Assembly (NCBI GenBank): GCA_964016885.1
Contig: OZ024745.1
Coordinates: 63,302,001 to 63,366,000 of the forward strand
DNA: 64,000 bases
Source: Eledone cirrhosa
Lineage: Eukaryota
Direction: 5' to 3'
Position numbers and translations under genes: made by a program. Positions 5,874-52,399 of the stretch are shown in pieces. Every line of letters begins with the position of its first letter. Positions within the stretch are counted from its first letter, which is position 1. Below the pieces are notes generated by a model. The model worked only from the letters and a program-made list of their open reading frames with translations, searched no databases and had not been told where the DNA came from.

Positions 5874-5899
5874 TATAATTATTATTATTATTATTATTA

Positions 5900-16332: not shown

Positions 16333-16367
<35 letters not shown>

Positions 16368-16382
16368 GTTGTTATTGTTATT

Positions 16383-19300
16383 CCTTGAATCTCAGTCATT
16401 GATGTTGGTTAACTGGAAAGTCCGTTGGATTGAATATCAAGCCACTACCTGCAGCCTCAGATATCCAGGACGTATCGGAGGGTTCTTGCTGTTCCAAGCA
16501 AGCATGCCTTTTGAAGCGTTCCAAAAAGCGTGAAGAGGCCGATTTTCTTTAACCATCCCTGGAAACTTTTGGAGATAATCCCCAGTGCGCCTATGACAAT
16601 CGGGATCACTTTGACTTCATGGCAGTTCCAAATCCTTTTCACCTCCCACTTTAGGTCCTGGTATCGGTTAATTTTCTCCCTCTCCTTCTCTTGCACTCTC
16701 GTGTCGAACGGGCAGGCCACATCCACAATCAGGCACGATCTTTTTTCTTTGTCCACAACCACCAGGTCAGGTCTATTGTGTTCCAGTTTTTTGTCCGTCT
16801 GTATCCTAAAATCCCACAGCACCTTCACCTGATTGTTCTCCATCACCGCCTCTGGCCTATGCTCATACCATTTCTCAGAATGTGGTAGATTGTTTACTTT
16901 GCACAGGTGCCAGTGGATCACCCTGCCCATCACATCGTGTCTCCAGCCCTTATAGTGGGTCTGGGCTAGGTGTTTACACTCGGACACAATGTGAGCCACA
17001 GTCTCCTCTCTCTCTCCACAGATCCTGCACAGTGGGCTAGCCTCCTCCTTGTAGATATGGTGCTTCAACCACTTCGTTTTGAGGGCCTGCTCCTGCGCAG
17101 CCATTAGCATTCCTTCTGTAGCCTTTTTGAGGTCTCCTCTTCTCAACCAGTTCCATGTCTGTGGATATCTAAATTCAGTTTTCTCAAAGAAGGTACTATG
17201 AAGGGGTTTTCCCTTAAGGCTGCTCTTCCTCCTTGATGTTATTTCCTCCCTGGACATCCCCTGGCCTACTGTCCCCTCCTTCAGTACAGTTCTGAGCATT
17301 GGCTCCTTACTATAGGTCACGTATTTGTATAGGTTGTTTTTCTCCATCTGAACACAGTCCTCTATGCTGATAAGACCTCTTCCACCCTCAGATCTCCTTA
17401 GGTAGAGTCTATCGACATCACTCCTCTTGTGGAACATGTTGTAGATAGTCAATAGCTTCCTAGTCTTCCTATCCATTTCTTTCTGTTCAGCAACATTCCA
17501 TCTCAGAATTCCCACAGCTCGGGAATTTACTGCGCTTATGGCATTTCTGCTGTTCAGATGTGACTTCAATACGCTCCTTACTCTCCGAATGTATTCAGTT
17601 CTTAACAATTCCTTCATTTTTTTGTTCTTTATGCCATCAGCCTCCAGAACGCCCAAATACTTGTATCCTTCCTCAGAGTCAATTTCCTTTATCATCTCAC
17701 CTGTTGGTATCTGGATCCCGTTACTTCTGCTCAACCTACCCCTCTTCATCACAATGACTCCACATTTACCAATACCAAACTGCATACATATATCACTGCT
17801 GAAAATACGGACAGTGTCAACAAGCACATCCAACTCCTTCTCACTTTTCCCGAAGAGCTTAAGATCGTCCATGAAGAGGAGGTGATTGATGGTAAGCTCT
17901 CCCCTTCCCAACTTGTATCCTGCTCTCACTTTTCGCAGCATAATGGTCAAGGGCATCAGGGCAAGGACAAACAACAGAGGGGACAGGCTATCTCCCTGGA
18001 AGATACCTCTCTTGATCTTCACGCTTCCCAAGGATACTCCAGTTGATGTCAACTCTGTCTCCCAGGACCCCATACGCCTGCCTAGCAACTGTCTGATGTT
18101 ATCTGCCACCCTGAAGATCTCCAGGCTTTTGGTGATCCAGGAATGAGGCACCATGTCAAATGCCTTTCTGTAGTCTATCCATCCCATGGCAAGATCAGTG
18201 TGTCTCCTCCTGCAATTCCCCATTACCATCTTATCAATAAGCAACTGGTCCTTTGTACCACGTGACTTCTTTCGGCATCCTTTCTGTTCGTCCGGTAACA
18301 AGTTGTTTGTGTGGAGGTGATGGTAGATTTCCTCAGACACAATGCTCGTCAACAGTTTCCACATTACGGGCAGACATGTGATAGGTCTATAGTTGGTAGC
18401 ATCATTACCCTTGATTCGGTCTTTCATTATCAGAACTGTGGTACCTTTTGTCAACCACTCTGGCACCTCACCCGACACCAAGCAGTCATTGAACATGGCC
18501 GTCAGCTTCGGGTGGAGGGATGTTAGATGTTTAATCCAATACCCCTGCACACCATCTGGGCCTGGTGATTTCCAGTTGGTTAGTTTTTTGGCTTGCCCCT
18601 TAAGAGTTTCAACTGTGATACTCAAATCAGTCTGTTGCTGTGCCTGCTCACCGATCTCCCTCTGTACTGTCTCAATCCACCCTGCCTGGGCATTGTGTCT
18701 AACATCCTGCTCCCATATTCCTCTCCAGAATGTTTTAGTTTGCTCCGCCCCAGGGATCAAGTCGTTGCCTCTTTCTTTGCCCTCAAGCTGTCCAAACAGC
18801 ATCTTCTGGTTGTTGTCGAACATGCGGTTCTGTTTATACTGACTGACTCTGTTCTCGTATCGCCTGATTTTTGCACTCTTTGCTACAATGCGTTGCTTCA
18901 ATTCCTCTATGATAATATTTAGCTTTTTACTCCTAGTTTTGTATTTTATTTCCAGTCTATTTTTAGTGCCTATGTTTTTTAGTGTCCCATTCAGTAGTGA
19001 CTCAAGCTTTCCTATGTCATTTCTCATTTCCCCGATTTGCCCACTCAGTCGCTTCTTCCACCACGGCTCTGCTCTTTCTTGTCTGTTGTTTCCTCTCGCT
19101 TTTATACCAAGTAGTTTCCTCACCGTATTTGCTGTTGCTCTGAGGATATTGTTGCACTGGTGAAGGCTCCTCGCCTCAAGGTATGGGATGACTTTGTTTA
19201 CCTTAGCTGTTGTTTCTTTTAACTTTTTCCTGACTACAAATCTTAGGTTCATAGGTCTCCCACTATCATTGTTCAATTCATCTACCACTAAATTTAGGAT

Positions 19301-19990
19301 GTCAACCGAATCTTGTCCTAGCCCGTCAGCATTCATCTCCTCAGTGGCCGTATCTCTGTTCCAGGTATTATTTATCTCAGTACTCAGATCATTGTCTGCT
19401 TCGGGTGGTTCCTCCGTTCTCAGGTCCTCCTCACCTTCATTTCCCACCGGCTCGCTTGTCTGGCATACTACACCCGCCATCTCCAAGCCATTCTCTCTGC
19501 TCAGTTCCTCCAGTTCCAGCTCGCTTATCCACCCATTAGTTCTTATTACCCGAGCCTGCCCGGCCAATTTTTGTTCATCTAATTTAAATAAACCAATCTC
19601 GTTCCAGATGTTATGCATCCGTCTCCTGTAGCCCCTCTCCTTGGGGTTACTTTTCAGGTAGCATTGCATAACAGTTCTATTCAATTCTTTCGTCCAGTTG
19701 GTTCTGGCCCCTTTCCTTCTTCTCCTTCCTCCAACATCAGCAGTATTTGGTTGACAGTCAGGTTCCTGCTGCTGAGCCAGGGGGCACCTGTTGGGTGAGA
19801 GTCTGTCACATGACGTTCTAGTCTCCATTTCACCGTTATTTGAACTGTTTATGTTCGATATTTAAACACTCTTATCGAGGATTGGCGAATGTATGTTTAC
19901 ATAGCCATCTGTGGATCCGCCATCCCACTTGGCCCTTGTGTGGCATTATCACCACGCTGTATACGAACACACATAAACAAACAAACACAC
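16383..19990 (-). mobile_element. Dong/R4-clade non-LTR retrotransposon family A, full-length copy (A1)
   Basis: Single ORF, 74-nt 3' UTR ending in (TAA)n (16333-16382); 5' boundary approximate. Confidence 0.93.
16457..19828 (-). CDS. RT + CCHC zinc finger + restriction-like endonuclease polyprotein (1123 aa, uninterrupted)
   Basis: Myb-like N-terminus (RTNWTKELN), KSPGPDG, YRPITCL, DYRKAFD, QGDSLSPLLF, FMDD, YKYLG, CRIC-x8-H-x4-C, RHD, RPDLVV..DVACP..KINRY. Confidence 0.95.
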   Translation of the reverse strand: METRTSCDRLSPNRCPLAQQQEPDCQPNTADVGGRRRRKGARTNWTKELNRTVMQCYLKSNPKERGYRRRMHNIWNEIGLFKLDEQKLAGQARVIRTNGWISELELEELSRENGLEMAGVVCQTSEPVGNEGEEDLRTEEPPEADNDLSTEINNTWNRDTATEEMNADGLGQDSVDILNLVVDELNNDSGRPMNLRFVVRKKLKETTAKVNKVIPYLEARSLHQCNNILRATANTVRKLLGIKARGNNRQERAEPWWKKRLSGQIGEMRNDIGKLESLLNGTLKNIGTKNRLEIKYKTRSKKLNIIIEELKQRIVAKSAKIRRYENRVSQYKQNRMFDNNQKMLFGQLEGKERGNDLIPGAEQTKTFWRGIWEQDVRHNAQAGWIETVQREIGEQAQQQTDLSITVETLKGQAKKLTNWKSPGPDGVQGYWIKHLTSLHPKLTAMFNDCLVSGEVPEWLTKGTTVLIMKDRIKGNDATNYRPITCLPVMWKLLTSIVSEEIYHHLHTNNLLPDEQKGCRKKSRGTKDQLLIDKMVMGNCRRRHTDLAMGWIDYRKAFDMVPHSWITKSLEIFRVADNIRQLLGRRMGSWETELTSTGVSLGSVKIKRGIFQGDSLSPLLFVLALMPLTIMLRKVRAGYKLGRGELTINHLLFMDDLKLFGKSEKELDVLVDTVRIFSSDICMQFGIGKCGVIVMKRGRLSRSNGIQIPTGEMIKEIDSEEGYKYLGVLEADGIKNKKMKELLRTEYIRRVRSVLKSHLNSRNAISAVNSRAVGILRWNVAEQKEMDRKTRKLLTIYNMFHKRSDVDRLYLRRSEGGRGLISIEDCVQMEKNNLYKYVTYSKEPMLRTVLKEGTVGQGMSREEITSRRKSSLKGKPLHSTFFEKTEFRYPQTWNWLRRGDLKKATEGMLMAAQEQALKTKWLKHHIYKEEASPLCRICGEREETVAHIVSECKHLAQTHYKGWRHDVMGRVIHWHLCKVNNLPHSEKWYEHRPEAVMENNQVKVLWDFRIQTDKKLEHNRPDLVVVDKEKRSCLIVDVACPFDTRVQEKEREKINRYQDLKWEVKRIWNCHEVKVIPIVIGALGIISKSFQGWLKKIGLFTLFGTLQKACLLGTARTLRYVLDI

Positions 19991-20249
19991 AGGCAGAAAG
20001 GGCCCCAAAAATGAATAAGCATAAGTTTCATTGTAATGTAGTGTTCGAATGTCTGACTTAGTTTTAGTTTTTTAAGTTTTACTTTTCCCCCCCTCTTCTC
20101 TGTCCGTCCGCCTGCTTCTCTCTTCATTCTTATTTTCTTTACGTTTTTGGGGTTTCTTTTTTTTTGTTTTTGTTTTTCTCTGTTTGTTTTTCTCGTTTTT
20201 TGCTGTTGTTGCTGTGCTGCTTTGGTTTTGTTGTTTGTTTTTTCTTTTT

Positions 20250-20895
20250 TCTTTTGGGTCTATCTATATATTTTGATGCCTTCCTCTTTGTTAGTAGTAG
20301 GAATTCTATAATGTGGAAGTAGCAGCCAGCAGGGAAGTGGGAGACTGGCGGCGCTAGCGATACTGAGACAGTGGTGGTGGTGATGTCGATACCGAGGCAG
20401 TGGTGGCGGTGATGTGACCGTATTACTGTAGTGATGGTGCTGTAGCGGAGTCAAGGGGTGGTGGCGGCGGTGATGGGATAGTGGTGGTAATGATGGCCGT
20501 AGTGAGCGGTGGCGGTGAAGGTGAAAATGTGTCGTTATCTGGCTGTTGTGTTTAGTGTACACAGATGATGGGGTGGGTGGTGTATCTAGTTTCTGGTGTT
20601 GGTGAGTTTAGCTGTCCTATATAGTGTAGCCAGAGGAGAGGAGGGGAGGGGTTCTTCTTCCATTTATAGCCATTTTTTTTTTTTGGATATACAGTGTACA
20701 ATACAAAGTTGAATATTTGAATATTTGAGCCTTATAACAATATATTTTGGGTCCGAATTTTTTGGGGCTCAAGCCGGGTGCTTTACGTAGCATTTGTACT
20801 AAGAGTTGTTATTTCACAAATGATTTAAATATGTTAAAAATTCAAAACTTACGGGAGCGATTTCATGACCTCCGTCACCTCGTGCGTCTTCTTCC

Positions 20896-20896
<1 letters not shown>
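20250..20896 (-). other. Leader segment D, copy 1 (unknown origin)
   Basis: Homologous to ~35425-36105; right end ...cgtgcgtcttcttccc fused to (ATT)n; minus strand resembles a 5' UTR followed by T/P/S-rich coding-like sequence. Strand is inferred. Confidence 0.7.
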
Positions 20897-20934
<38 letters not shown>

Positions 20935-20959
20935 CATTATTATTATTATTATTATTATA

Positions 20960-20995
<36 letters not shown>

Positions 20996-21007
20996 AATGA
21001 ATAAAGG

Positions 21008-21076
21008 GGTCGATAAAATAAAGTACCAGTAATGCACTGGGTAATTGCTGGCCTTGTGCCTAAAGTAGAAACAATT
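21008..21076 (+). mobile_element. SINE 3' fragment whose tail runs into (ATT)n
   Basis: gggtcgataaaataaagtaccag...gtgcctaaagtagaaacaattattatt. Confidence 0.85.
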
Positions 21077-21100
21077 ATTATTATTATTATTATTATTATT

Positions 21101-21353
21101 CCTTGAATCTCAGTCATTGATGTTGGTTAACTGGAAAGTCCGTTGGAATGAATATCAAGCCACTACCTGCAGCCTCAGATATTCAGGACGTATCGGAGGG
21201 TTCTTGCTGTTCCCAGCAAGCATGCCTTTTGAAGCGGTCCCAAAAGCGTGAAGGGGCCGATTTTCTTTAACCATCCCTGGAAACTTTTGGAGATAGTCCC
21301 CAGTGCGCCTATGACAATCGGGATCACTTTGACTTCATGGCATTTCCAAATCC

Positions 21354-21354
<1 letters not shown>
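21101..21354 (-). mobile_element. Dong family A, 254-bp 3' fragment
   Basis: Matches 16383-16636; (TTA)n on both sides. Confidence 0.93.
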
Positions 21355-21387
<33 letters not shown>

Positions 21388-21396
21388 GTTGTTATT

Positions 21397-23306
21397 CCTT
21401 GAATCTCAGTCATTGATGTTGGTTAACTGGAAAGTCCGTTAGAATGAATATCAAGCCACTACCTGCAGCCTCAGATATTCAGGACGTATCGGAGGGTTCT
21501 TGCTGTTCCAAGCAAGCATGCCTTTTGAAGCGTTCCAAAAAGCGTGAAGGGGCCGATTTTCTTTAACCATCCCTGGAAACTTTTGGAGAAGTCCCCAGCG
21601 CGCCTATGACAATCGGGATCACTTTGACTTCATGGCAGTTCCAAATCCTTTTCACCTCCCACTTTAGGCCCTGGTATCGGTTAATTTTCTCCCTCTCCTT
21701 CTCTTGCACTCTCGTGTCGAAAGGGCAGGCCACATCCACAATCAGACACGATCTTTTTTCTTTGTCCACAACCACCAGGTCAGGTCTATTGTGTTCCAGT
21801 TTTTTGTCCGTCTGTATCCTAAAATCCCACAGCACCTTCACCTGATTGTTCTCCATCACCGCCTCTGGCCTATGCTCATACCATTTCTCAGAATGTGGTA
21901 AATTGTTTACTTTGCACAGGTGCCAGTGGATCACCCTGCCCATCACATCGTGTCTCCAGCCCTTATAGTGGGTCTGGGCTAGGTGTTTACACTCGGACAC
22001 AATGTGAGCCACAGCCTCCTCTCTCTCTCCACAGATCCTGCACAGTGGGCTAGCCTCCTCCTTGTAAATATGGTGCTTCAACCACTTCGTTTTGAGGGCC
22101 TGCTCCTGCGCAGCCATTAGCATTCCTTCTGTAGCCTTTTTGAGGTCTCCTCTTCTCAACCAGTTCCATGTCTGTGGATCTCTAAATTCAGTTTTCTCAA
22201 AGAAGGTACTATGAAGGGATTTTCCCTTAAGGCTTCTCTTCCTCCTTGATGTTATTTCCTCCTTGGACATCCCCTGGCCTACTGTCCCCTCCTTCAGTAC
22301 AGTTCTGAGCATTGGCTCCTTACTATAGGTCACGTATTTGTATAGGTTGTTTTTCTCCATCTAAACACAGTCCTCTATGCTGATAAGACCTCTTCCACCC
22401 TCAGATCTCCTTAGGTAGAGTCTATCGACATCACTCCTCTTGTGGAACATGTTGTAGATAGTCAATAGCTTCCTAGTCTTCCTATCCATTTCTTTTTGTT
22501 CAGCAACATTCCATCTCAGAATTCCCGCACCGTACCTAATAATAGACACAGCTCGGGAATTTACTGCGCTTATGGCATTTCTGCTGTTCAGATGTGACTT
22601 CAATACGCTCCTTACTCTCCGAATGTATTCAGTTCTTAACAATTCCTTCATTTTTTTGTTCTTTATGCCATCAGCCTCCAGAACGCCCAAATACTTGTAT
22701 CCTTCCTCAGAGTCAATTTCCTTTATCATCTCACCTGTTGGTATCTGGATCCCGTTATTTCTGCTCAACCTACCCCTCCTCATCACAATGACTCCACATT
22801 TACTAATACCAAACTGCATACATATATCACTGCTGAAAATACGGACAGTGTCAACAAGCACATCCAACTCCTTCTCACTTTTCCCGAAGAGCTTAAGATC
22901 GTCCATGAAGAGGAGGTGATTGATTGTAAGCTCTCCCTTTCCCAACTTGTATCCTGCTCTCACTTTTCGCAGCATAATGGTCATGGGCATCAGGGCAAGG
23001 ACAAACAACAGAGGGGACAGGCTATCTCCCTGGAAGATACCTCTCTTGATCTTCACGCTTCCCAAGGATACTCCAGTTGATGTCAACTCTGTCTCCCAGG
23101 ACCCTATACTCCTGCCCAGCAACTGTCTGATGTTATCTGCCACCCTGAAGATCTCCAGGCTTTTGGTGATCCAAGAATGAGGCACCATGTCAAATGCCTT
23201 TCTCTAGTCTATCCATCCCATGGCAAGATCAGTGTGTCTCCTCCTGCAATTCCCCATTACCATCTTATCAATAAGTAACTGGTCCTTTGTACCACGTGAC
23301 TTCTTT
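21397..23306 (-). mobile_element. Dong family A, 5'-truncated copy (A2)
   Basis: Near-identical to A1 16383-18271; premature TAG at 22361-22363 and a frameshift near the C-terminus; (TTA)n on both sides. Confidence 0.95.
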
Positions 23307-23320
23307 ATTATTATTATTAT

Positions 23321-25069
23321 TTGCATTTATCTTGCTTTATGTTCATACGAGTTATCACCAAGTCGCAACCAGTGACCTCAAGAGACAACAAGGTCCGCCA
23401 TGTTCAAGAAAGAACATACATATTCACACAAGCATCCTTAGTGTTTGGACTTCTGATGTACTTATATTGACAGGATCTTCCTTAGTATATGGGCAGTTCC
23501 CATTAGTACTATCTTTTGTATTTCTCCTATACGCGGGTTTCCTGGGATTTGCGATAAGTAGTCGTTAGACCCCTTAGGTATCATTCCCAGAGCGCCTACA
23601 ACGACTGGTATTGTTTTAGTTCTCAATTTCCACATTTTTCCAATTTCTATCTCCAGGTCCTTATACTTGCTCAATTTTTCAAATGTTTTTATAGATACAT
23701 TCTTGTCTATTGGAACAGACATATCAATTAGCAGGCATACCTTCCTTTGAAAGTCCTTCAATATTATATCAGGTCTATTTGCATCTATTTTTCGGTCTGT
23801 TTGGATGCTAAAGTTCCACAAGATTGAGATGTGATCTTTTTCAAGTATGGGAGGTGGTTGATTCTCCCACCAATTCTTTTGATGGGGCAGGTCAAAATGC
23901 TTACACATTATCCAATGTATGTATTGTGCAGCTCTGTCATGCCTGTTTAGGTATTCTGTTGGAGCTATAGGACTGCACATTGAAATTATATGGTCAATTG
24001 TCTCTGGTTGTTTTTTGCATACACGGCATAATGGGCTGCACCCATTTTGTATTATGTTGGCTTGGTAATTTTTTGTTGGCAGACACTGATCTTGTGCCGA
24101 TATAATCAGTCCAACCACTGATGGGTTAAAGGTTTGTCAACATCAGGATTGTTAGCTCGATCTGGGTATTTTCCATACAGAGGCTTTTCTTGCCATTTCT
24201 TAGCCAGTTTCTGTAACAGTTCTTTCTTTGCAGTTACTTTTACCTGCTTTGCTTTTTCTGTGTTTTCCATTTCAGCAGTAAATGGGACTTCTGAAATTTG
24301 TAGTCCATTACTGTATCTTTGTGCATCTTTTGTAATGGAATATGATCTTTTGGTGCTTTCGTGTTTCAAAACGAGTTTGATCATCCAATCATGTGATTCC
24401 CTTAGTTATGTGGATAATCCAATTGTTGCAGTTTTCAACGCAATGTCTAACTGGATTAACCCACGTCCTCCTTCTTTCCTAGGGAGATATATTCTATCTA
24501 TGTCTGCCTTAGGGTGATGCATTCTGTGCATGGTTAAGAATTTTCGGATTTTTGTATCGAGCCTACGGATCTCTGTGCTTGACCAGTTGATGACATTGTA
24601 ACTGTAGGTTACTACTGGTATGGCAAGCGTGTTTATGGCATCGATCCTATTCCTTGCATTCAATTCCGTTCTTAAGATTGCTCTGACTCTGCGGTAACAT
24701 TCCTTCCTTATCCTTTCCCTCATTGTCGAGTGCCTGATTCCGTCTCCTTCACAAACACCTAGATATTTGTAAGTTTTTTCTTGATCAAGCTCTCTTATCA
24801 CGTTCCCCCGATCAAGATTAATGTCTGAACTCTTCAGCAGCTTTCCTCTGGTGAACGTTGCTTTGGCGCATTTATCCAGTCCAAACTCCATTTTAATGTC
24901 ATCACTGAACTGCTTCACAGTGGATAATAGCCCTTGCAATTGTTCATCATTTTTTGCAAATAGTTTCAGGTCATCCATGTAGAACAGGTGATTAATGGTT
25001 TTGTCATAGACTCTATATCCATGTTTTGTTTCATTGAGCATTTTACTTAATGGTATAAGTGCGATGCAG

Positions 25070-25074
<5 letters not shown>
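23321..25074 (-). mobile_element. Dong family B, 5'-truncated copy (B1)
   Basis: ORF pieces 23462-24118, 24106-24384 and 24406-25041 (YMDD, CRVC..H..C, RHD, RPDI); ~30-nt deletion near 24110; (TTA)n on both sides. Confidence 0.95.
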
Positions 25075-25105
<31 letters not shown>

Positions 25106-25313
25106 GGCGACCTACGTAGGAAATCGTATTATCGTGAGCTCCGCAAAGGTTTGTTATTTCCGTTTGTTTAAAAATTGCCATTTATGGAAAATTTTATTGT
25201 AAACTGTTTATAAGCACTCATACATTGTTTTCCGAAAAGGACACCCAAAAAGATTGGGGCCTTGTGCCCAAAATTTTAACTTTTATTATTATCCAAAAAT
25301 TTCTTTGAAATAA

Positions 25314-27275
25314 ATGGCTAATTCCCCTCTGCACGAAGCAGCTGAAAGCCTTCCTCACAAAATAACACCTCACACCGACACCACCATTGTAAATGTTACT
25401 ACGTTTGCCAACACAAAAAAAATATAAGCAGTAGCAATATTTTAAATTTGTCTCAGGCAGACATTCATTTCCCGCCATTACCAATGACTGCAGGTGTTAA
25501 ACCCTCCACCACCACCACCACCACCGCGACAACAGAAACAAAAGAAGAAAAAAATAAATTAACTCGTGACGTCGAAATGAAATCAAGCAAAATGGACTCT
25601 TCCCCACCAAAGACGACTGACGTCACCACCACCACAACTGAAAATAAAATTAATATTAACGATAACAACAACAACAACAATGACATTATAAAACCGACCC
25701 TCAGTTTCGCCATCGTAGCAAAACAATTCGAAGCGTTCACGGTAACTCAAGAAGATTTAGAAAATGCCAAACAAATGGTAAAGAAAGATGGGTACAGGGT
25801 CAGCCCCCCCCCCCCACACCTAATAAAATGGAGCATCGGCGCCTGTGCACCGTGTCGTATAGAACAATAAATGTAAAATCGCGCCGAGTGAAACGGGCAT
25901 CCGAGTCCCAAATCCAAAAAGCTTTGGGACATGTGTGGGCAAGAAAAACCCACATCAGACGTGGGCAGAAGTATGGAACCGTGGACGTGTTCTTTGAAAC
26001 ACCAGAGGAGGCTAGAGAACACTCCATGGCCCCATTAAAAAGTGACGACTTCACACTCGTCCCAAGCTATTGTGGCCAGAGACTCGTAAAGATCAGAGTG
26101 ACCCACGTTCCACCGGCCATCGAAATTCCCTGGCTAATAGCGGCTGTCCTCGCCGGCATCGAAGCCAACACGAAAATAATAGCAGTAGCAAAAGAAAAGC
26201 AGGAAAACTGGTCCGGATCTGGGATGGAGCTCCTGATCCAAGCGGACGAAAAAAGCATTGAGGAGATCCCAGAGGTAATAGACCTCACTGACGGCAGCCA
26301 CCTCACCGTAATTGTCGAGGGCAGAAGACCTAGGTGTGTCGTTTGTGGTGAAGGAACCCACCTAAGGGCTTTCTGCCCTCAGGCTAAAAGGTTGAGGCCA
26401 CCTCTCCTACCCACCCCAGTGACACAACCATCAACACCACCAGTAGCAGAGATGGCAGCAACAACTGTAGCAGCAACAAGAGAAGCAACTATAACAGCAA
26501 CAACCCCAGCAACAGTAGCAAAACCAACACCACTACCACCACCAGCAAAACCAACACCACCACCACCCAACGCTTCAGAACTAGCACCAACGCCTACACC
26601 ATCCACCACACCACAACCAAAACTAACGGCTGTGGAGGATTTTCCACTCCCCGGCCTATCACAACTGGAGACAGATTGTGACGACGAGGAGTGGGAAACG
26701 ATATCCGGAAAAAAGAAAGAAACCAAAAAAGAAAAAATTCTCTTCCTTCCCCCTCCAAAAACAAAATACAGAGGGAAACAAATAAACTAAGAAACAAAAA
26801 AGTTAGGACAGATATGCCACCATCCACACCAGCATCACCAACCCCATCAACCCAAACACCAACACCATCACCATCATTATCCCCAGCACAACCATCACCT
26901 ACACCACAAAAGTCACCAAAATGCGAAACAGAAACAAACCCACAACAAACGCAAACAAAACAAAACAACCAAAACGATACACACTACACAGCATTAAATT
27001 TGAACAACAAGCAATTATTACACTACATCCAACACAACACCAGCATCACAGAAAAAGACTACACAACAACCCCAAAATTCACACCACCTCCACACATACA
27101 AATCACTCGCATCACACAGAAAACGTACATGACACTAAAACAAAAATTCCCCAAAGACATCGGAGACTTCCGACAAGCACTCTCCAGGAGGATTTATAAG
27201 GACATCCTTCCTGAGGAGGCCACAAGCAGTGAAAAGGATGGAAAAGACGTCCTTCCCCTACGAGAAGTAAGGTAA
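25314..27275 (+). pseudogene. Tx1 ORF1 (gag-like zinc knuckle), frameshifted
   Basis: Pieces 25448-25870, 25828-26790 and 26691-27275; CVVCGEGTHLRAFC (CX2CX4HX4C); T/P-rich linkers; start approximate. Confidence 0.8.
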
Positions 27276-27309
27276 GTGGTCTTTCCCATCTTTTCCACTC
27301 ATTTTCAAC

Positions 27310-30300: not shown

Positions 30301-30729
30301 GTCAGCCGGGCATGTCCGAGATGCGCGCAGGGCGACGAAACCGTCCTGCACGCACTCGTCCAGTGTCCGAGCATTGCTGACTTGTGGGTTTATGTCGAAC
30401 ACCTGCTGTCACGTGTAGGACGGATCCAGCTATCAGCTGAGTCCAACGTGAGGATTGCCCCGCCCCCTTCCTTTAGCCTGGAAGGGCAGGCAGTTTTTAT
30501 CTGTCTGGTGGCCATGGCGAAAGAGATAGTATGGTGGACACGTTTGAAAGGGCTGAAGACGAGCACTTACCTCTTCGGTGATGCCCTGATTAACTTTTTC
30601 AAATTTCATTTGAAAAGGAAAATCAGGGTAGAGAGGGAAGTGCTCTCTTCCCAGCATTTTGTTGAAAGATGGGTGAGAGAAGCAAGTATGGCCCGAATGA
30701 ATGGGCCTTCTCTGAGTATGTGTCTGTAA
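27310..30729 (+). pseudogene. Tx1 ORF2 (APE endonuclease + RT + Cys domain), disrupted near 28190-28220
   Basis: SINARGL, ISET, VYAP, VGDWN, TDH, GYWKLN; RPITLLN, DQSKAFD, QGCPLS, YADD; CPRC..ETVLHALVQC. Confidence 0.93.
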
Positions 30730-30971
30730 ATTAAAGGTGGAAAACGGGGAGAGGGCACTTGCCCTGGTGGTCAGGGCCTCTGTGGTCTTTTAATGGGCTT
30801 TCTCCACAAATGTCCCTTGGAAGTCTCCCCCCTATTGGGGAATTTTTCTTTGTTATTTTATTTCAACCTCTGTTTTTTTACACGCAGAAATGCCCATTTG
30901 TACCGTCCTGTATTGTCCTGTACTGTCCTTAATGTCTACTTTATGTGAACCCTTGTGGTTAATAAAGAAAA

Positions 30972-31044
<73 letters not shown>

Positions 31045-31045
<1 letters not shown>

Positions 31046-31158
31046 CTTGAATCTCAGTCATTGATGTTAGTTAACTAGAAAATCCGTTGGAATGAATATC
31101 AAGCCACTACCTGCAGCCTCAGATATTCAGGACGTATCGGAGGGTTCTTGCTGTTCCC
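31045..31158 (-). mobile_element. Dong family A, 114-bp 3' fragment
   Basis: Matches 16383-16495; (TTA)n on both sides. Confidence 0.9.
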
Positions 31159-31175
31159 TATTATTATTATTATTA

Positions 31176-34100
31176 CAGTTGCATTTATCTTGCTTTATGT
31201 TCATACGAGTTATCACCAAGTCAAGACCAGTGACCTCAAGAGACAACAAGGTCCGCCATGTTCAAGAAAGAACATACATATTCACACATGCATCTTTAGT
31301 GTTTAGACTTGTGATGTACTTATATTGACAGAATCTTCCTTAGTATATGGGCAGTTCCCATTAATACTATCTTTTGTATTTCTCCTATACGCGGGTTTCC
31401 TGGGATTTGCGATATGTAATCATTAGACCACTTAGGTATCATTCCCAGAGCGCCTACAACCACTGGTATTGTTTTAGTTCTCAATTTCCACATTTTTCCA
31501 ATTTCTATCTCCAGGTCCTTATACTTGCTCAATTTTTCAAATGTTTTTATAGATACATTCTTGTCTATTGGAACAGACATATCAATTAGCAGGCATACCC
31601 TCTTTTGAAAGTCTTTCAATATTATATCAGGTCTGTTTGCATCTATTTTTCGGTCTGTTTGGATGCTAAACTTCCACAAGATTGAGATGTGATCTTTTTC
31701 AAGTATGGGAGGTGGTTGATGCTCCCACCAATTCTTTTGATGGGGCAGGTCAAAATGCTTACACATTATCCAATGTATGTATTGTGCAGCTCTGTCATGC
31801 CTGTTTAGGTATTCGGTTGGAGCTATAGGACTGCACATTGAAATTATATGGTCAATGGTATCTGGTTGTTTTTTGCATACACGGCATAATGGGCTGCACC
31901 CATTTTTTATTATGTTGGCTTGGTAATTTTTTGTTGGCAGACACTGATCTTGTGCCGATATAATCAGTCCTTGAGTCTCCGATTTCAGTCCAGAGGATGC
32001 CAACCACTGATGGGTCAAAGTTTTGTCAACATCAGGATTGTTAGCTCGCTCTGGGTATTTTCCATACAGAGGCTTTTCTTGCCATTTCTTAACCAGTTTC
32101 TGTAGCAGTTCTTTCTTTGCAGTTACTTTTACCTGCTTTGCTTTTTCTGTGTTTTCCATTTCAGCAGTAAATGGGACTTCTGAAATTTGTAGTCCATTAC
32201 TGTATCTTTGTGCATCTTTTGTAATGGAATATGATCTTTTGATGCTTTCGTGTTTCAAAACGAGTTTGATCATCCAATCATGTGATTCCCTTAGATATGT
32301 AGATAATCCAATTGTTGCAGTTTTCAACGCAATGTCTAACTGGATTATCCCACGTCCTCCTTATTTCCTATGGAGATATATTCTATCTATATCAGCCTTA
32401 GGGTGATGCATTTTGTGCATGGTTAAGAATTTTCGAATTTTTGTATCGAGCCTACGGATCTCTGTGCTTGACCAGTTGATGACATTGTAACTGTAGGTTA
32501 CTACTGGTATGGCAAGCGTGTTTATGGCATCGATCCTATTCCTTGCATTCAATTCCGTTCTTAAGATTGCTCTTACTCTGCGGTAACATTCCTTCCTTAT
32601 CCTTTCCCTCATTGTCGAGTGCTTGATTCCGTCTCCTTCACAAACACCTAGATATTTGTAAGTTTTTTCTTGATCAAGTTCTCTTATCACGTTCCCCCAA
32701 TCAAGATTAATGTCTGAACTCTTCAGCAGCTTTCCTCTGGTGAACGTTCCTTTGGCGCATTTATCTAGTCCAAACTCCATTTTAATGTCATCACTGAACT
32801 GCTTCACAGTGGATAATAGCCCTTGCAATTGTTCATCATTTTTTGCAAATAGTTTCAGGTTATCCATGTAGAACAGGTGATTAATGGTTTTGTCATAGAC
32901 TTTATATCCATGTTTTGTTTCATTGAGCATTTTACTTAATGGTATAAGTGCGATGCAGAATAAAAGCGGTGATAAAGAGTCACCCTGAAAAATTCCACAA
33001 TTAATATTAACTTCTCCAGCTTCCAGTGATTTTGTTTCACTATTCAAAAGGAGTGTCGTTTTCCACGTCTTCATACTGAATGACAAAAACCTCCTGACAA
33101 CGGGGGATACTTTGAAAATCTCTAAACATTTTTCAATCCAACTGTGTGGCAAACTATCAAATGCTTTTTTATAATCTATCCAAGCAATCGATAGATTTTT
33201 GTGTCTATTATGACAATCTTCCAGTATCATTTTGTTAACCAGAAGCTGATCCTTACAGCCATATGAGCCTCGTTTACACCCTTTCTGCTCAATGGGAAAT
33301 AGGTAATTTGTTATCAGGTGGTCATATGTGTATTCAGTTAGGACTGATGTTAAAATTTTATACATTGTGGTCAAGCAAGTTATCGGTCTGTAATTTTTGG
33401 GATTGTTTGTCTCATCATTCTTCGGAAGCAGGAATGTAATGCCGTTAACTAGCCATGAAGGTATCTTTTCTGGCTCCTTAACTATTTCATTGTAAAGTTG
33501 GGCTAACAGCTCATGAAACTCTGTGAAGGCAGTTATCCAAAAGTTTTGTATTTTGTCTTTTCCTGGGGATTTCCATTTGCTGGTTTTTCTTAGAGCCAAG
33601 CGCAACTGTTCAACTGTTATATTTTCCCATGTTTGTTCCTCAAGGTGAGCTGTATCTTTCATTTGTCTGTCTATCCCTGGGACATGTATGTTATGAACTT
33701 TTTCTTCGGCCCAGATCTTTTCCCAGAATTCTTGCACTTCCTCCTTGGGTGGTATTGATTTAGCAGTTATTGTTGACTTACCAATTTTTCTGTAGAAGTT
33801 TCTTTGGTTGTTTTTGAACATATTATTGTCCTTATAGAATCTAGATCGTTTTTCAAAGCGCCTTATACGAGCAGCTTTGGCCGACACTCTTTGCTTGATT
33901 ATTTCTATCAGCATGTCTATGTCACATGTTGATTTTATAATGTACGTTTTTTTCAATTTTCTAAGTTTAGTTTGTTTAACATGTTCACCTACTTTATAGT
34001 TTGTTAAAATTTCTATGTCAGATCGGAGAAGGTTTATTTGGCGATTGATGTTCTCTTGCCAAGTAGATTTCTTGTGGGAATTCCTTTGTTTTTTCATCTT

Positions 34101-35150
34101 CACTCCACATAAGTGAGTGGTGACTTTAGCCGATGCATAATAGAGATGATTTAAATCAGTAATCTTTAGTTTGTTTGTGATGATAATGTTTTTGAGAATT
34201 ATGTTAGTCTTGTGTATTATCTTTTGGTTCTGTTTGGAGTTCTGGATCTTAGGGAGGGTGTCTCGTTGCCCCATGTCAGATTCTTTCATTTTCATCCATT
34301 CGATCATAATTTCATCCTTCAAGTTGGCAAGTTCATTCTCATTCATTTCCTTATCATTTACGATCTCATTATTTTCATTTGGAGTTTCATCCTGAGCATG
34401 CACTCCCTCCACTTTTTCGATCCTTTCTTTAATTTGTTCTGTTGCCAGTGATTCCGCCCCAACCCTGGGATTCGAAGTGTTACAGTTTACCTCATCTTCA
34501 CTGACACATGTTTCATTTTCCCTTCGCTGACTTTGTGCTAATAGCTTGATCTGATCAATTTCTATATCAGTTAGTAACTTTTTTCTTACAATATTTCTTC
34601 GTATATTGGCTAGTTTGTTACTGTCAATATAGCCTCTGTTTTCGGGATGTTTCTTTTTCCAGTTGATATATGTCTGTTCTGTATTCGATGTATTTGATGG
34701 GTAGTACATGGCAGTGTAGAAAGCCTCAAGGACTTCTTTATTATCTTCCCTTGACCATTTTTCTCTCTTTTTCTTTGGATTTCTTGGTGGTGAGCATGGA
34801 GGGCCAACAGTAGGAGTATTCCGGTTATGGGAGGTCTCCAGCTCCGAAGTGATGGGAAGGTTTGAACCATTAGCTGATTTTTCGACCCCAGTCTGGTTCC
34901 TCTCTGAGCGACGCGGCCCTTTTTTACCCGGGTGACGGCCGATCCGGTATGAGATTTTATTATTAGACATTTACTTTATTTTTTCGCGTTTTATCCTTAT
35001 CCGCCAAGGGGTAATCATTTCGTGTTACCACTTCTAGAACGAGTGTCAACCAAGACTAGAGGGGTCGTTCTCCCCTAGAGACACGGCTATTCCCCTCCGG
35101 CCGCCATCCCGGTATTTCTTGGTCACGGGGTTTTCTTTTTGTTGTTTTTT
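31176..35150 (-). mobile_element. Dong/R4 family B, full-length copy (B2)
   Basis: 144-nt 3' UTR into (TAA)n; structured 5' UTR at ~34971-35130. Confidence 0.93.
31320..34970 (-). pseudogene. Family B RT-RLE ORF (1217 codons) with one in-frame stop and YMDD>YMDN
   Basis: ORFs 32361-34970 and 31320-32327 share a frame; motifs EKWSRED, KSPGKD, DYKKAFD, QGDSLSP, YMDN, CRVC..H..C, RHD, RPDII. Confidence 0.92.
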
Positions 35151-35217
35151 TTTAAATTGTTATTATCATGAGTGGTTCCTTAATGTGAGCATTGCTTGGC
35201 TTAAGAATGAAATTATT

Positions 35218-35268
35218 AATAATTGTCTCCACTCCAGGCACAAGGCCAGCAATCACCCAGTGCATTAC
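35218..35268 (-). mobile_element. SINE 3' fragment
   Basis: aataattgtctccactccaggcacaaggccagcaatcacccagtgcattac. Confidence 0.75.
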
Positions 35269-35279
35269 AATAATATAAT

Positions 35280-36105
35280 ATACGTTTTGTTGTAGTTGGC
35301 TGTTATTGTTGTTGGCTATGTCGGTGGTGGTGCCGGGGCTTTTTATGTTGTTGGTGAGGAAGGGGTGAGCCAGCAGTCCCATATTTGTTGATATTGTCGT
35401 TTGTCCTTGGCCAGGTCACTAAGTCAATCTATTTATATCTTTTGCTAGCCTCTCCCTTGTCTAGTGATACCACCACCTTCCCCTTTCTCTCTCAAGTTAA
35501 CAGGGGAATAGTGGTGGTAGCATTGAAGGAGTGGTGGCGGCGGGGAGATGTGGGAGACAGTAGCGGCGGTATCGATACTGAGACAGTGGTGGTGGTGATG
35601 TCGATACCGAGGCAGTGGTGGTGGAGACGTGATCGTATTACTGTAGTGATGGTGTTGTAGCGGTGGTAGCAATGAAGGAAGGATGGCGGCGGTGATGGGA
35701 TAGTGGTGGTAATGATGGCAGTAGTGAGTGGTGGTGGTGAAATTGCCGTTATCGGGCTGTTGTGTTTAGTGTACACAGAGAGGTGATGGGGTAGGTGTTG
35801 TATCTAGTTTCTGGTGTTGTTTGGCTGTTCTATATAGCGTAGACAGAGGAGGGGGGGGGGTTCTTCTTCCATTTATAGCCATTTTCTTTTTTGAATATAC
35901 AATGTACAATATAAAGTTGAATATTTGAATATTTGAGCCTTATAACAATATATTTTGGGTCCGAATTTTTTGGGGCTCAAGCCGGATGCTTTACGTAGCA
36001 TTTGTACTAAGAGTTGTTATTTCACAAATGATTTAAATATGTTAAAAATTCAAAACTTACGGGAGCGATTTCATGACCTTCCGTCACCTCGTGCGTCTTC
36101 TTCCC
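35280..36105 (-). other. Leader segment D, copy 2
   Basis: Homologous to 20250-20896 with the same right-hand junction to (TTA)n; left end differs. Confidence 0.7.
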
Positions 36106-36155
<50 letters not shown>

Positions 36156-39100
36156 GGCGGCCTACGTAGTAAATCGTATCATCGTGAGCTCCGCAAAGGT
36201 TTGTTATTTCCGTTTGTTAAAAATTGCCATTTATGGAAAATTTTATTGTTAACTGATTATAAGCGCACATACATTGTTTTCCGAAAAGGACACCAAAAAG
36301 ATTGGGGCCTTGTGCCCAAAATTTAAACATTTATAATTATCAAAAAATGTCTCTGAAAAAAAAAACATGGAAGTCTCACAGCCACACGAAGCTGACAGCC
36401 TTCCTCATAATCTAACACCTCACACCGACACCACCATTGTAAATATTACTACGTTTGCCAACACTAAAAATTTAATCAGTAGCAATATTTTAAATTTGTC
36501 TCAGGCAGACATTCATTTCCCGCCATTACCAATGACTGCAGGTGTTAAAGCCGCCACCACCACTACCACCACGACAACCCCCACCACCACCACCACCGCG
36601 ACAACAGAAACAAAAGGAAAAAATAAATCAACTCATGATGTCGAAATGTTTTCAACCAAAATGGACTCTTCCACACCGAACACCTCTGACGTCACCACCA
36701 CCACCACAACTGAAACTAAAATTAATAATAACAAAAATAACGATAACAACAACAGCAACAATAACATTAAAAAAACCACCCTGAGTTTTGCCAGAGTAGC
36801 AAAACAGTGCGAAGCATTTATGTTAACTCAGGAGGAATTAGAAAATGCCAAAAAAATGGTAAAGAAAGATGGGTACAGGGTCAGCCCCCCCCCCCCCCCC
36901 ACACACACACACACCTAATAAAATAGACCATCGGCGCTTATGCACCGTGTCGTATCGAATAATTAATGTAAAATCGCGCCGAGTGGAACGGGCATCCGAG
37001 TCCCAAATCCAAAAAAGCTTTGGGACATGTGTGGGCAAGAAAAACCCACATCAGACGTGGGCAGAAGTATGGAACCGTGGACGTGTTCTTTGAAACACCA
37101 GAGGAGGCTAGAGAACACTCCATGGCCCCATTAAAAAGTGACGACTTCACACTCGTCCCAAGCTATTGTGGCCAGAGACTCGTAAAGATCAGGGTGACCC
37201 ACGTTCCACCGGCCATCGAAATTCCCTGGCTAATAGCGGCTGTCCTCGCCGGCATCGAAGCCAACACCAAGATAATAGCAGTAGCAAAAGAAAAGCAGGA
37301 GAACTGGTCCGGATCTGGGATGGAGCTCCTGATCCAAGCGGACGAAAAAAGCATTGAGGAGATCCCAGAGGTAATAGACCTCACTGACGGCAGCCACCTC
37401 ACCGTAATTGTCGAGGGCAGAAGGCCTAGGTGTGTCGTTTGTGGTTAACGAACCCACCTAAGGGCTTTCTGCCCTCAGGCTAAAAGGTTGAGGCCACCTC
37501 TCCTACCCACACCAGTGACTCAACCATCAACAGCACCAGTAGCAGAGATGGCAGCAACAACTGTAGCAGCAACAAGAGCAGCAACTATAACAGCAACAAC
37601 CCAGCAACAGTAGCAAAACCAACACCACCACCACCCAACGCTTCAGAACTAGCACCAGCGCCTACACCATCCACCACGCCACAACCAAAACTAACGCCTG
37701 TGGAGGATTTTCCACTCCCCGGCGTATCACAACTGGAGACAGATTGTGACAACGAGGAGTGGGAAACGGTATCAGGAAAAAATAAAAAATAAAACCAAAA
37801 AAGTAAAGAAAATTCTCTTCCTTCCCCCTCCAAAAACAAAATACAGAGGGAAACAAATGAATTAACAAACAAAAAAGTTAGGACAGATATGCCACCATCC
37901 ACACCAGCATCACCAGCCCCATCACCCCAAACACCAACACCATCACCATCATTAACCCCAACACCACAATCACCTACACCACAAAAGTCACCAAAATGCG
38001 AAACAGAAACAAACCCACAACAAATGCAAACATAATAAAACAACCAAAACGATACACACTACACAGTATTAAATTTGAACAACAAGCAATTATTACACTA
38101 CATCCAAAACAACACCAGCATCACAGAAAAAGACTACACACCAACCCAAAAATTCACACCACCTCCACACACAAATCACTCGCATCACACAGAAAACGTA
38201 CATGACACTAAAACAAAAATTCCCCAAAGACATCGGAGACTTCCGACAAGCACTCTCCAGGAGGATTTATAAGGACATCCTTCCTGAGGAGACCACAAGC
38301 AGTGAAAAGGATGGAAAAACCGTCCTTCCTCTACAAGAAGTAAGGTAAGTGGTCTTTCCCATCTTTTCCACTCCGTTTCCACATGACCTAACTCAGAATA
38401 GGCAGCATAAATGCGAGTGGCTTGGGGTCGTCATGGAAGTAGGGCCACCTGCTCAACGACCTCAGGTCACTAAACATATATGTAGTGGCCATCAACGAGA
38501 CCAGAATCTCCGAAACACGGGCCTTCGCACCGATCTTCGGCGGCTACGATGTGTACGCATCTCCCAGCCGTCCGGGATCTGGGGGAGGAGCTACTGTGCT
38601 TTTTCGGAGAGGTTTGGGTCTTGCCATACGGGCCATCTTGCTGGACCCAGAAGGTAAGTTGGTGGTGCTGGACGTGACCAGCGGAGACGGGCAAGCTTTC
38701 AGGTTAGTGGCCGTCTATGCCCCGACAGGAGCAGGCGGCCTGATTTCTTCCGGCGTCTGGAGACCTTTCTTGGAACGTCCCGCTCTTTAGTGTTAGTGAG
38801 CGACTGGAACGGGATCTTAGATGCACGCTGGGATTGTGTGGGATTAGTGGATAGGAGAGGAGGGTGCAAGAGTCTCACCAAGCTGCTCAGGCGTTTTGAA
38901 CTGTCTGACAGGTACCGATTGGATTTCCCGAATGTACCAATGTGGACTTGGACAAATCGCATAGGATCATCCAGATCATATCTAAATAGAGTATTTTGTA
39001 GGGAAATAGATAGGTCTAGCATAGGCTGTCCACAATTCAAGATAGTCAGCTACACGGACCACAAATTCGTGATATGTGTGCTTGACTTAGATAGGCTTCA

Positions 39101-42042
39101 TAGACGAGGACCCGGCTACTGGAAGCTAAACGCGTCCTTACCAGCGCGCAAGGCCTACAGAGACCGGATTAGCGAACTAGTTAAGCGGGCGTTGACGGCG
39201 GCCATCGTCAACAAGTGGTGGTTTGCTCTGAAAAGAGCAATTAGAATAGAGTCCATTAGGTTTAGTAAGGCTTTAGCAATAGAGAAAAATAGAGCAGAGG
39301 GAGAACTAGTTAGAAAATTAGACGAGGCGCTTTGCAAAGGCATCGCGACCGACGTACTTGCGGCGAAATTGGCCCTTGACCAATTCTTCAATGCAATGCA
39401 CCAAGGCTGCGTTGTCAGAGCTAGGGTGCGTGCTCTCAGACACGAGGGGACGAAAGCCGTTCAATGGGCCCAAGTGGCGGAGGCGCGACGTGGCAACAAA
39501 TCCACGATCCGGTCTTTGGTGGAATACGACGGGCGCATGCTACTCGATCCCGGGAAAATGTGTGACGCTTTTCAGCGACACTTCGCTCAGCTGTTCGGGG
39601 GCAGCGGGGGGCCGGATCGAGGGATGGACTTTAGTGTCTACCTCGACGGACTGCCGCGGTTCTCGGCCACTGAGGCGGAGTGTTGCGAAAAGCCGATAAC
39701 AGCCGCTGAAGTACGGGAGGCAATGACTGGCTGCACAAGGGGTAAATCGCCTGGTTTGGATGGTTTGCCCTATGAACTTTACGTACAAATGCCAGACTGG
39801 TTCGGAGGCCTCTTGGCGGACGTCTACTGCAACTGGCAACAGAACGGGAGAATTCCCATCTCTGTGAGCCGAGGAGCTGGCGCTGATGAGAAAGGATCCG
39901 AACAAGGGGGATAACAGATAATGTTAGGCCCATAACTGTGCTAAACACAGAGTTCAAGATTTTGGCCATGGTGCTAGCAATGAGGTTGGCGCTTGTCGTT
40001 GGTGGTCTGGTGGGAGAGGCGCAGACATGCGCCATTCCCGACAGGTCCATCCACGACAACCTCCACCTCATGCGATACATAGTAGAGAGGGTAGCTAGGG
40101 AACCTGGCACGGGTGGGTCCTTGGTCAATTTAGATCAGTCGAAAGCTTTCGATAGGATCGACCATCGTTACCTAGCGGCAGTCCTAAGGGCGGCTAGCTT
40201 TGGGCCCGTCTTCAGAGGCTGGATCGCTGCCATGCACAGCGACATCTGCTCTGTGGTGAGAGTGAACGGTCACCTGTCGGAACCGTTCAACATCATGCGC
40301 TCGGTCCGCCAAGGATGTCCCCTCTCGTCCCTCTTGTACGTATTGACTCTCGAGCCATTACTGCACAAACTGGAGATGTTGAGGGGCGTCCTGTGCGAAC
40401 TAGGATGCGGAAGATCAGTGTCAGCATATGCGGACGATGTCACTGTAGTGGTGTCGAACGCCAAACACATCGAGGCGATCGGCACTACACTAAGAGAATA
40501 CGAAGCGGAGACAGGAGCAATGATCAACCAGGAAAAGTCAGTGGGCCTGCAGCTCGGCACCTGGAGAGGAAGGTCCATGCCGTCCAACAGCGTCGTCGGA
40601 CGCTGGACGGACGGACCGGTTAAATTGCTAGGGGTCTGGTTCGGTCCGGACCTCCAGACGGACAAAAACTGGGACGAGGTGACGAGCAGGGTGGCTTCTC
40701 TCACCCAGAAATGGGCTTAGAGGAAGCTATCCCTGAAAGGTCGAGCGGAGGTGGCTAACGCGTACATCGCGTCTGTCATCTGCTACCGCCTGACCGTCGT
40801 ACCTTGTCCTAAGCCTCGCCTGACTGCGCTGGAGCGTTTGCTCTTTCGCTTTTTGTGGAAGGGACGCGCTCCGATGGTCAGGCGGTCTATCTGTTGTCAA
40901 CACCCGCTACGTGGGGGGCTGGGCATGCCGTGGCTGATGATGCGCAGGCACGCACTCAGGCTACGACATCTCCATCTCTTCCTCGACGGTGATCAGGTGT
41001 GGTCGCCGTTTGCTAGACACGTATTTCCCCAGCTCGTTTCCTTGACGGGGCTGCAGTCCTGGGTCAAGCGAAGACTGAAAGGGAGCGCCTGGAGACTGGA
41101 ATGTCTTCAGGCGCTCACAGCCCTCGACCAATCGGGCAATGTGATCGGTGGAAACTCCACCTTGGCGTTCTATAGAGGATTGGTGGAGGGGAAGAGCGAC
41201 GACGTACTTGGGGAAACTCTAGGCGTCGACGAAAATCAACTAGCCAATCTCTTCGGAAGAACTTTCGGGCCAGGGCCTATGGACTACTTCCAGAAATCTC
41301 TGGCCTGGCAGTGCTACCGAGGAGCCTTGCCAGTTCGGGATAAACTCTACAGGCATGGAGGTGCCGTCAGCCGGGCATGTCCGAGATGCGCGCAGGGCGA
41401 CGAAACCGTCCTGCACGCACTCGTCCAGTGTCCGAAAATTGCTGACTTGTGGGTTTATGTCGAACACCTGCTGTCGCGTGTAGGACGGATCCGGCTATTA
41501 TCTGAGTCCATCGTGAGGATTGCCCCGCCCCCCTCCTTTAGCCGGGAAGGGCAGGCAGTTTTTATCTGTCTGGTGGCCATGGCGAAAGAGATAGTATGGT
41601 GGACACGTTTGAAAGGGCTGAAGACGAGCACTTACCTCTTCGGTGATGCTCTGATTGACTTTTTCAAATTTCATTTGAAAAGGAAAATCAGAGTAGAGAG
41701 GGAAGTGCTCTCTTCCCAGCATTTTGTTGAAAGATGGGTGAGAGAAGCAAGAATGGCCCGAGTGAATGGGCCTACTCTGAGTATATATCTGTAAATTTAA
41801 GGTGGAAAGCTGGGAGAGGGCACTTGCCTTGGTGGTCAGGGTCACTGTGGCCTTTTACTGGGCTTTCTCCACAAATGTCCCTCCGAAGTCTCCCCCTATT
41901 GGGGAATTTTTCATTGTTATTTTTTTGTTACATCCTCTGTTTTTGTTTTTTACACGCAGAAATGCCCATTTGTACCGTCCTGTATTGTCCTGCACTGTCC
42001 TTAATGTCTACTTTATGTAAACACTTGTGGTTAATAAAGAAA

Positions 42043-42044
<2 letters not shown>
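36156..42044 (+). mobile_element. Tx1-clade family C, full-length copy C2 (multiply disrupted)
   Basis: Colinear with C1, 5889 bp; ORF1 ATG at 36367; ORF2 pieces ~38383-41794 with stops and frameshifts; AATAAA then (ATT)n 42045-42083. Confidence 0.93.
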
Positions 42045-42084
<40 letters not shown>

Positions 42085-42452
42085 CAGAGAGGGCCGTGGG
42101 TTAGCTTTAGAGTTAGGGTTAGGGTTAGTTTTATCATTAGTTTATTAAATTGCGTACAGTTAGAGTAAGCGACCATAAATCTATTTGCATTTTATATGTA
42201 CAATGTTGTTTTTAGTGTTATATTTATTGTGCTGTATGTACACAATGTCTAATAAGACTATATACTATGTTTGTAATTCTTTGGAATTTTTTCATGAGTT
42301 TCATTGTTCTTCAGTTTATGCATTTTGTTTTTCAGAATTTCCATTCGTATTATTTCTAATTTTTTTTTAATCGTGTGTTATCTCCATGTAGTTGGAAATA
42401 CATTGTCTCAAACATCGATTTGAAAGCACCTATTTTTTGGTGTGGGGGCAAA

Positions 42453-52385: not shown

Positions 52386-52399
52386 CCCTTAACAGAATC

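Follow-up and report, generated by a model that had tools for sequence, protein, structure and literature searches.

Several families of retrotransposons are known to use simple repeats as insertion sites. In Bombyx, TRAS and SART share the telomeric repeat (TTAGG)n and insert into it in opposite directions, with the specificity residing in the endonuclease (PMC7265360). Dong elements target TAA microsatellites in silkworm, mosquito and a snail (PMC3812793). Among Tx1-clade elements, Kibi, Koshi and crocodilian Tx1 are specific for TC, TTC and TTCC/TTTC microsatellites, and SINEU-3, a short interspersed element (SINE) with its partner's target, shows tandem sequential insertions that sandwich a duplication (PMC4494074). 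The Tx group is likewise described as target-specific (PMC3747384), and tandem arrays have been noted for Utopia (PMC4640811). Octopus annotations report active Dong-R4 and L1-Tx1 families and hotspots of transposable elements; the available parts of these annotations do not mention shared TTA targeting (PMC13282606, PMC8967140, PMC9115989). The present analysis concerns a stretch of 64,000 nucleotides of the cephalopod Eledone cirrhosa (assembly GCA_964016885.1, contig OZ024745.1, positions 63,302,001-63,366,000), hereafter the window, which is located 63 Mb into a contig of 135 Mb in a microsatellite-rich genome of 3.0 Gb and contains a mixed array of Dong-like and Tx1-like elements embedded in TTA repeats.

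A map based on self-comparison, open reading frames (ORFs) and the reading of junctions resolves the array into eight units of long interspersed elements (LINEs) and one free SINE piece, with ten TTA tracts of 5-23 units between them. The LINEs belong to two Dong-like families with a restriction-like endonuclease (RLE), A and B, and to a Tx1-like family with an apurinic/apyrimidinic endonuclease (APE), C. Every junction in the array holds a TTA tract, including the 5' ends of four truncated Dong copies, and no ORF is interrupted by another unit, presumably because the ORFs contain no long tracts. The original prediction, made from the letters of the window, had given the order and strands of the LINE units, the TTA junctions and the intact ORFs, all of which were borne out, as were the unit coordinates: the six RLE units are all on the minus strand and the two APE units (C1, C2) on the plus strand. 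The locus is very probably one of thousands of arrays, this number being itself a probable one, in which Dong-like and Tx1-like elements occupy TTA tracts in opposite orientations fixed for each lineage. Such arrays likely arose as target-primed insertions were repeated in tracts that previous insertions had lengthened. This reading builds on what was seen at the flanks, on the polarity and the clustering, on tails specific to each element, and on the growth of tracts at one host site shared by several inserts.

The polarity was counted over de-duplicated element ends in the fetched loci, from which six self loci, two duplicates and L092-L105 had been dropped beforehand. Dong 3' ends stood at TAA in 188 of 200 cases (A 123/132, B 65/68), as did 60 of 69 Dong 5' ends; two TTA cases among the latter were fold-back tracts and came from a search aimed at such cases. 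The opposite polarity was found for the 3' ends of C (76/80 at TTA) and of another Tx1-like lineage, T205 (11/12), and TTA preceded 84 of 85 Tx1 5' ends, a tract lying ahead of all 53 C 5' ends. SINE 3' ends (n=121) were at TTA in 38 cases, at TAA in two and at both in one. Of 66 truncated 5' junctions, 51 fell where expected, within a tract of the right reading; copies that were less than 90% identical or had internal deletions in register were left out of this count. The expectation that both clans use the same repeat on opposite strands thus holds genome-wide in this census. Tracts of the form (TAA)n(TTA)m, which fold back, were seen ahead of Dong 5' ends in L316, L318, L319 and L321, which suggests occasional priming on the other strand.

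The original prediction further held that the class of endonuclease sets the polarity. As a strict rule, this would mean that on this repeat the TTA strand primes every RLE and the TAA strand every APE. All Dong-like lineages seen, namely A, B and more distant ones in L200, L203 and L209, do share one direction, and all seven TTA-flanked Tx1 5' types together with the SINE run opposite to Dong. However, the Tx1-like lineages of the genome form a single clade (SH-aLRT, the approximate likelihood-ratio support, 100), which leaves about one origin per side, and TTA is absent from the 3' ends of two copies from the basal sister branch (L208 and L220, which resembles it). Sixty-four distant relatives from metagenome contigs contained no run of four or more TTA/TAA units. 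An RTE family, considered as a third APE targeter, was rejected, since the tract belongs to the leader of the RTE element itself, which is a host rather than a targeter. The T/A step is available on both strands of the repeat. Moreover, TRAS1 and SART1 are structurally similar APE-type elements with opposite insertion directions within TTAGG, and an endonuclease swap also swaps the specificity (PMC7265360). Each side has about one independent case, and a counter-example has been published; the class rule is unsupported and quite unlikely, and the choice of strand is most likely a trait that evolved in each lineage.

The array had been framed as a single locus. It is real, but similar or larger arrays occur elsewhere, and the locus is typical for the genome rather than exceptional. 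Exact-pattern counts gave 8,449 A 3' ends and 1,154 5' ends of D (the shared Dong leader discussed below), and (TTA)6 tracts in one left-boundary phase gave 23,479 matches as against 44,770 for a reversed control pattern. The elements are dispersed along contigs on both strands. They are nevertheless clustered: for the 100 A 3' ends that come first along the contig labelled C1 (distinct from the unit C1), 29 of 99 neighbouring pairs lay within 12 kb against 2.1 expected, with the same strand in 29/29 of these close pairs versus 27/51 distant pairs. The exact-pattern A 3'-end loci and 60 evenly spaced stretches are the only samples unselected by score. In the former, 19 of 30 ends had another Dong or Tx1 unit directly across the tract. 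The same was seen at 22 of 30 C 3' ends (L031-L060) and at all 29 full-length C 5' ends (L167-L195), an asymmetry between two samples of different make-up. In the 600 kb of evenly spaced 10-kb stretches, seven of 12 tracts of at least five units lay at A/B/C junctions and three more beside a SINE. Extension of 11 of the 30 C-anchored loci, an anchoring that favours long arrays, gave six of at least 25 kb (~26, 28, 28, 31, 32 and >40 kb, several of them open-ended), three of 17-19 kb and two small ones. By extrapolation from the neighbour fractions, there are probably thousands of such arrays in the genome.

That the array was put together wrongly at TTA tracts during assembly, or arose by tandem duplication in place, is hardly credible, although the stretch is spanned by no contig among those compared, which come from one sample that is possibly the source, and duplicated-looking pairs of loci exist elsewhere (L031/L032, L178/L179). 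The copies in the array are 93-97% alike and have different truncation points and partners, and random misjoins are not expected to yield family-specific polarity over hundreds of ends. Raw reads of restriction site-associated DNA (RAD) from another sample contain the D-TTA-B and truncated-A-TTA-B junction types. The best identity of the copies to another locus varies from 96.7 to 99.5%, so their ages differ and they arrived separately.

Insertion also appears to regenerate and lengthen its target, as had been proposed, and two sets of observations support this. The RTE family bears a TTA tract within its own 5' leader, into which two C copies and one A copy have been inserted at three loci (L042, L052/L301 and L331), with the same RTE sequence on both sides. 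A duplication of 28 bp and an 8-unit tract were found at L042, and the other two RTE-hosted loci hold ~23-27 units in total; insertion at this shared host site was accompanied by a roughly threefold growth of the tract. In addition, CAA variants occur in the tails of A (51/60 and 44/60 ends) and in none of 27 B tails; being specific to A, they imply that the element itself contributes part of each tract. Target duplication and an RNA-templated tail both seem to add repeat units.

It may be argued that the tracts are merely 3' tails made by the elements, that insertion is AT-rich but otherwise unspecific, and that the clusters persist through selection. A tails are partly element-derived, as seen above, and SINE tails end in ATT repeats. 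Tails alone, however, cannot produce the tract flanks at truncated 5' junctions, nor do they account for the tracts ahead of the C 5' ends, the co-orientation of the close A pairs or the three inserts in one pre-existing RTE-leader tract, and this explanation is very improbable. Under repeated target-primed insertion, the Dong enzymes would nick the strand that reads TTA, with priming on the (UAA)n end of their RNA, and the TTA-targeting Tx1 lineage would nick the TAA-reading strand, probably at the T/A step, and duplicate a target of ~25-28 bp. These strands are derived from the standard scheme of target-primed reverse transcription. Each insertion would leave two usable tracts in place of one, and hence occupied sites would draw further insertions. 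Read-through from both sides might also give antisense RNA in the manner of a piRNA cluster, as the original prediction suggested.

Several points weigh against the reading of the array as built by such insertions. The samples were biased: for D, for B 5' ends and for C they were the young copies with the best scores, and another set consisted of variant copies. One of the 80 C 3' ends was at TAA, and 80 of 121 SINE 3' ends had no tract of at least three units. Fifteen of the 66 truncated 5' junctions lay outside the expected tract, one of them in the opposite tract; at several of these, Dong and Tx1 meet directly, with the look of a later deletion. The B copy B0, placed outside the array (5900-6988, or 5883-6988 as otherwise delimited), is older and internally deleted, and of its two ends the 3' one alone has TTA. 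Elsewhere, there are A and C copies interrupted by SINEs (L305, L307). For tract growth, the duplication length and the 8-unit 'native' tract both come from one locus, L042, the comparison of RTE leaders included no uninterrupted one, and slippage could be another source of lengthening. Lastly, the original idea of growth inside one microsatellite agrees with the unique right flank, but an empty allele of the array was not found. The right flank was also considered as a repeat that might provide a paralogous empty site; this was ruled out, the flank being unique apart from a GGGTTA run.

The arrays are a real, genome-wide and mechanistically coherent variant of the shared-repeat niche known from TRAS/SART. 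In both, several families occupy one repeat in opposite directions, and the shared repeat, the opposite orientation and the tandem build-up are known already from that system. The difference is that TRAS and SART are of similar APE type and telomeric (PMC7265360), whereas the present arrays combine RLE and APE elements at dispersed interstitial sites, on a 3-bp unit and with a SINE as passenger; no telomeric-repeat target at chromosome ends was seen, the arrays being dispersed and the window lying well inside its contig. Similarly, C resembles Kibi, Koshi and crocodilian Tx1 as a microsatellite-specific Tx1-type LINE and differs in its target, (TTA)n, which it shares with an RLE clan (PMC4494074). 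A literature search, with Repbase, supplements and subscription papers outside its scope, returned no TTA-specific Tx1 and no mixed Dong/Tx1 arrays. The locus type offers a natural high-copy test of strand choice and target sharing, with two unrelated nucleases, one 3-bp repeat and thousands of junctions, and points to retrotransposons as both targeting and lengthening one class of microsatellites. It also carries a warning for repeat libraries and for callers of insertion polymorphisms, by which such copies may be split wrongly or overlooked.

Families A and B are Dong/R4-like RLE LINEs as judged from their coding sequences. Each has a single ORF in which reverse transcriptase (RT; RVT_1) is the sole Pfam hit, followed by C-terminal CCHC and RLE motifs (CxxC..H..C, RHD, RPD-x-D, K-Y); no APE is present. 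R2 proteins are their best solved relatives, with the match running through to the C-terminus; RT homologs are unnamed or uncharacterised, and the RT tree holds no named Dong. The TAA target and the single-ORF RLE anatomy agree with Dong, although PMC3812793 places Dong among APE-type elements; unlike the Dong elements reported there, A and B reach thousands of copies in mixed arrays, and the two lineages, whose proteins are 35% identical, share and exchange a leader. Their DNA is unalignable except for D. A1 has an open frame of 1134 amino acids (16457-19861), with a 7-amino-acid in-frame gap relative to A2, and it is the only such frame: B2, C1 and C2 hold stops or frameshifts, and in B2 YMDN replaces YMDD.

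D had been taken for a separate unit of the array. It is instead the 5' leader of A and B, joined without a tract to the A 5' region in 30/30 loci and to the B 5' region in 30/30 (the window copy being counted in both), and A1 and B2 are therefore full-length. The 210-nucleotide core of D1 is 94-98% identical to that of young B copies. When 59 D cores were placed in a tree, young A copies nested with young B copies (100/99), and older A and B variants, 77-84% alike, stand apart; forcing the A rows to be monophyletic was rejected by the approximately unbiased (AU) test (p-AU 0.0024), with the bootstrap not fully settled and the test chosen after the tree was viewed. This phylogenetic discordance indicates at least one exchange of the 5' leader between Dong A and B, presumably by template switching or gene conversion. 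Recruitment of 5' untranslated regions (UTRs) and their exchange between coexisting families are described for mouse L1 (PMC3600994), to which the leader replacement here, also seen in the Tx1-like family E, is similar; the A/B exchange differs in joining RLE lineages with unalignable coding DNA. The arrays display an exchange of 5' leaders between RLE lineages that have diverged deeply.

D may have a still wider history. A more far-reaching version holds that the arrays form a niche that feeds itself throughout the genome, with thousands of sites (some >40 kb) that supply a large share of the long TTA microsatellites in the genome and exchange 5' leaders, and that D was born as a Tx1-type promoter and ORF1 start, crossed the divide between APE and RLE elements and was later passed between Dong lineages. 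This is doubtful. D resembles Tx1 leaders by eye, and an nhmmer profile of Tx1 leaders gave it 3.0 bits, a score reached by two of 500 shuffles and none of 540 background windows. The same profile gave ~0 or below for D2 and five older variants and failed on three of seven true Tx1 5' ends left out in turn. A search for D preceded by TTA, as in a possible Tx1 donor, found four places against 1,154 D ends, all of them Dong copies with a short inverted tract. Tandem D segments occur in the A copies L004, L010, L016, L018, L023, L024 and L026 and may be compared with L1 promoter monomers. Runs of (GAA)n, possibly arising by slippage on the GAAGAAG start of D, stand at Dong 5' junctions in L087, L288, L306 and L311, with a matching (TTC)7 at the left edge of the array.

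Family C encodes ORF1 and an ORF2 with Exo_endo_phos, RVT_1 and zf-RVT domains, and its endonuclease matches L1 endonuclease structures. E combines the ORF2 of C (95% DNA identity) with a different 5' UTR/leader and ORF1, and an intact ORF2 of 1195 amino acids is found in L196. The Tx1 features, two ORFs with APE, RT and a C-terminal zinc motif in ORF2, are shared by C, E and the further Tx1-like lineages, as is sequence-specific insertion, with target duplication seen at one locus (L042). Two of nine scanned relatives have U2 small nuclear RNA (snRNA) after them, at an RT identity of ~35% and in a tree that lacks named references. Keno also has U2 snRNA after it. Distant Tx1/L1-like elements in the metagenome contigs L355, L358 and L365 are followed by U2 snRNA in two cases and U1 in one. 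The E-family 5' UTR contains a hairpin with a CCTCCTCGTG loop (L196:130-290), reminiscent of R2 and hepatitis delta virus (HDV) ribozyme cores; no ribozyme was called there by an HDV-ribozyme descriptor, which matched nothing in the 5' regions of A, B, C and E, a weak negative given that it had no positive control. A short non-autonomous element in L229 and L256 fuses the RTE 5' leader to the RTE 3' end.

The array in the window starts with (TTC)7 and then (TTA)11 with A-type tail variants (16312-16382). The full-length Dong/R4-like A1 (16383-20897, minus strand) contains D1 (20334-20897, minus; 89% identical to D2) in its leader and is followed by a tract of 12+7 units (20898-20957) and (GAAA)10 (20959-20997). 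A SINE 3' half with a tail of ATT repeats (21006-21074, plus), which we read as being of transfer RNA type from a B-box-like motif, has the polarity of Tx1. A 5'-truncated A of 255 bp (21101-21355, minus) lies between tracts at 21075-21098 and 21356-21385 and precedes A2 (21397-23304, minus), also 5'-truncated, 97% identical to A1 and with one in-frame stop. B1 (23322-25076, minus; tracts 23305-23319 and 25077-25103) is a 5'-truncated B, 96% identical to B2. Next comes the full-length Tx1-like C1 (25104-30973, plus) with ORF1, an ORF2 of APE, RT and zf-RVT, frameshifts and a stop, and AATAAA right before the tract. A 5'-truncated A of 114 bp (31045-31158, minus) is flanked by tracts at 30974-31042 (23 units) and 31161-31175. 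The full-length B2 (31176-36105, minus), with one in-frame stop, carries D2 (35547-36105) and a SINE piece (35202-35268) in its leader; the piece had been listed as a second SINE unit of the array, but in other B copies it sits within B's own leader. The full-length Tx1-like C2 (36154-42045, plus), 93% identical to C1 and with several frameshifts, closes the array between tracts at 36106-36153 and 42046-42081.

An Rfam scan of 16000-44500 returned two chance matches only. About five telomere-like GGGTTA units lie at 42098-42128, 15 bp past the right junction, and similar runs cluster on the contigs C8 and C9. Four SINE pieces in tandem (42450-42893) are located directly to the right of the array. 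Further on, there is a decayed RTE-type LINE on the minus strand (47077-48824), its DNA ~69% identical to the RTE copy in L206, and a degenerate 58/118-bp tandem repeat (51203-52552) followed by (TGA)33 and (GAG)19.

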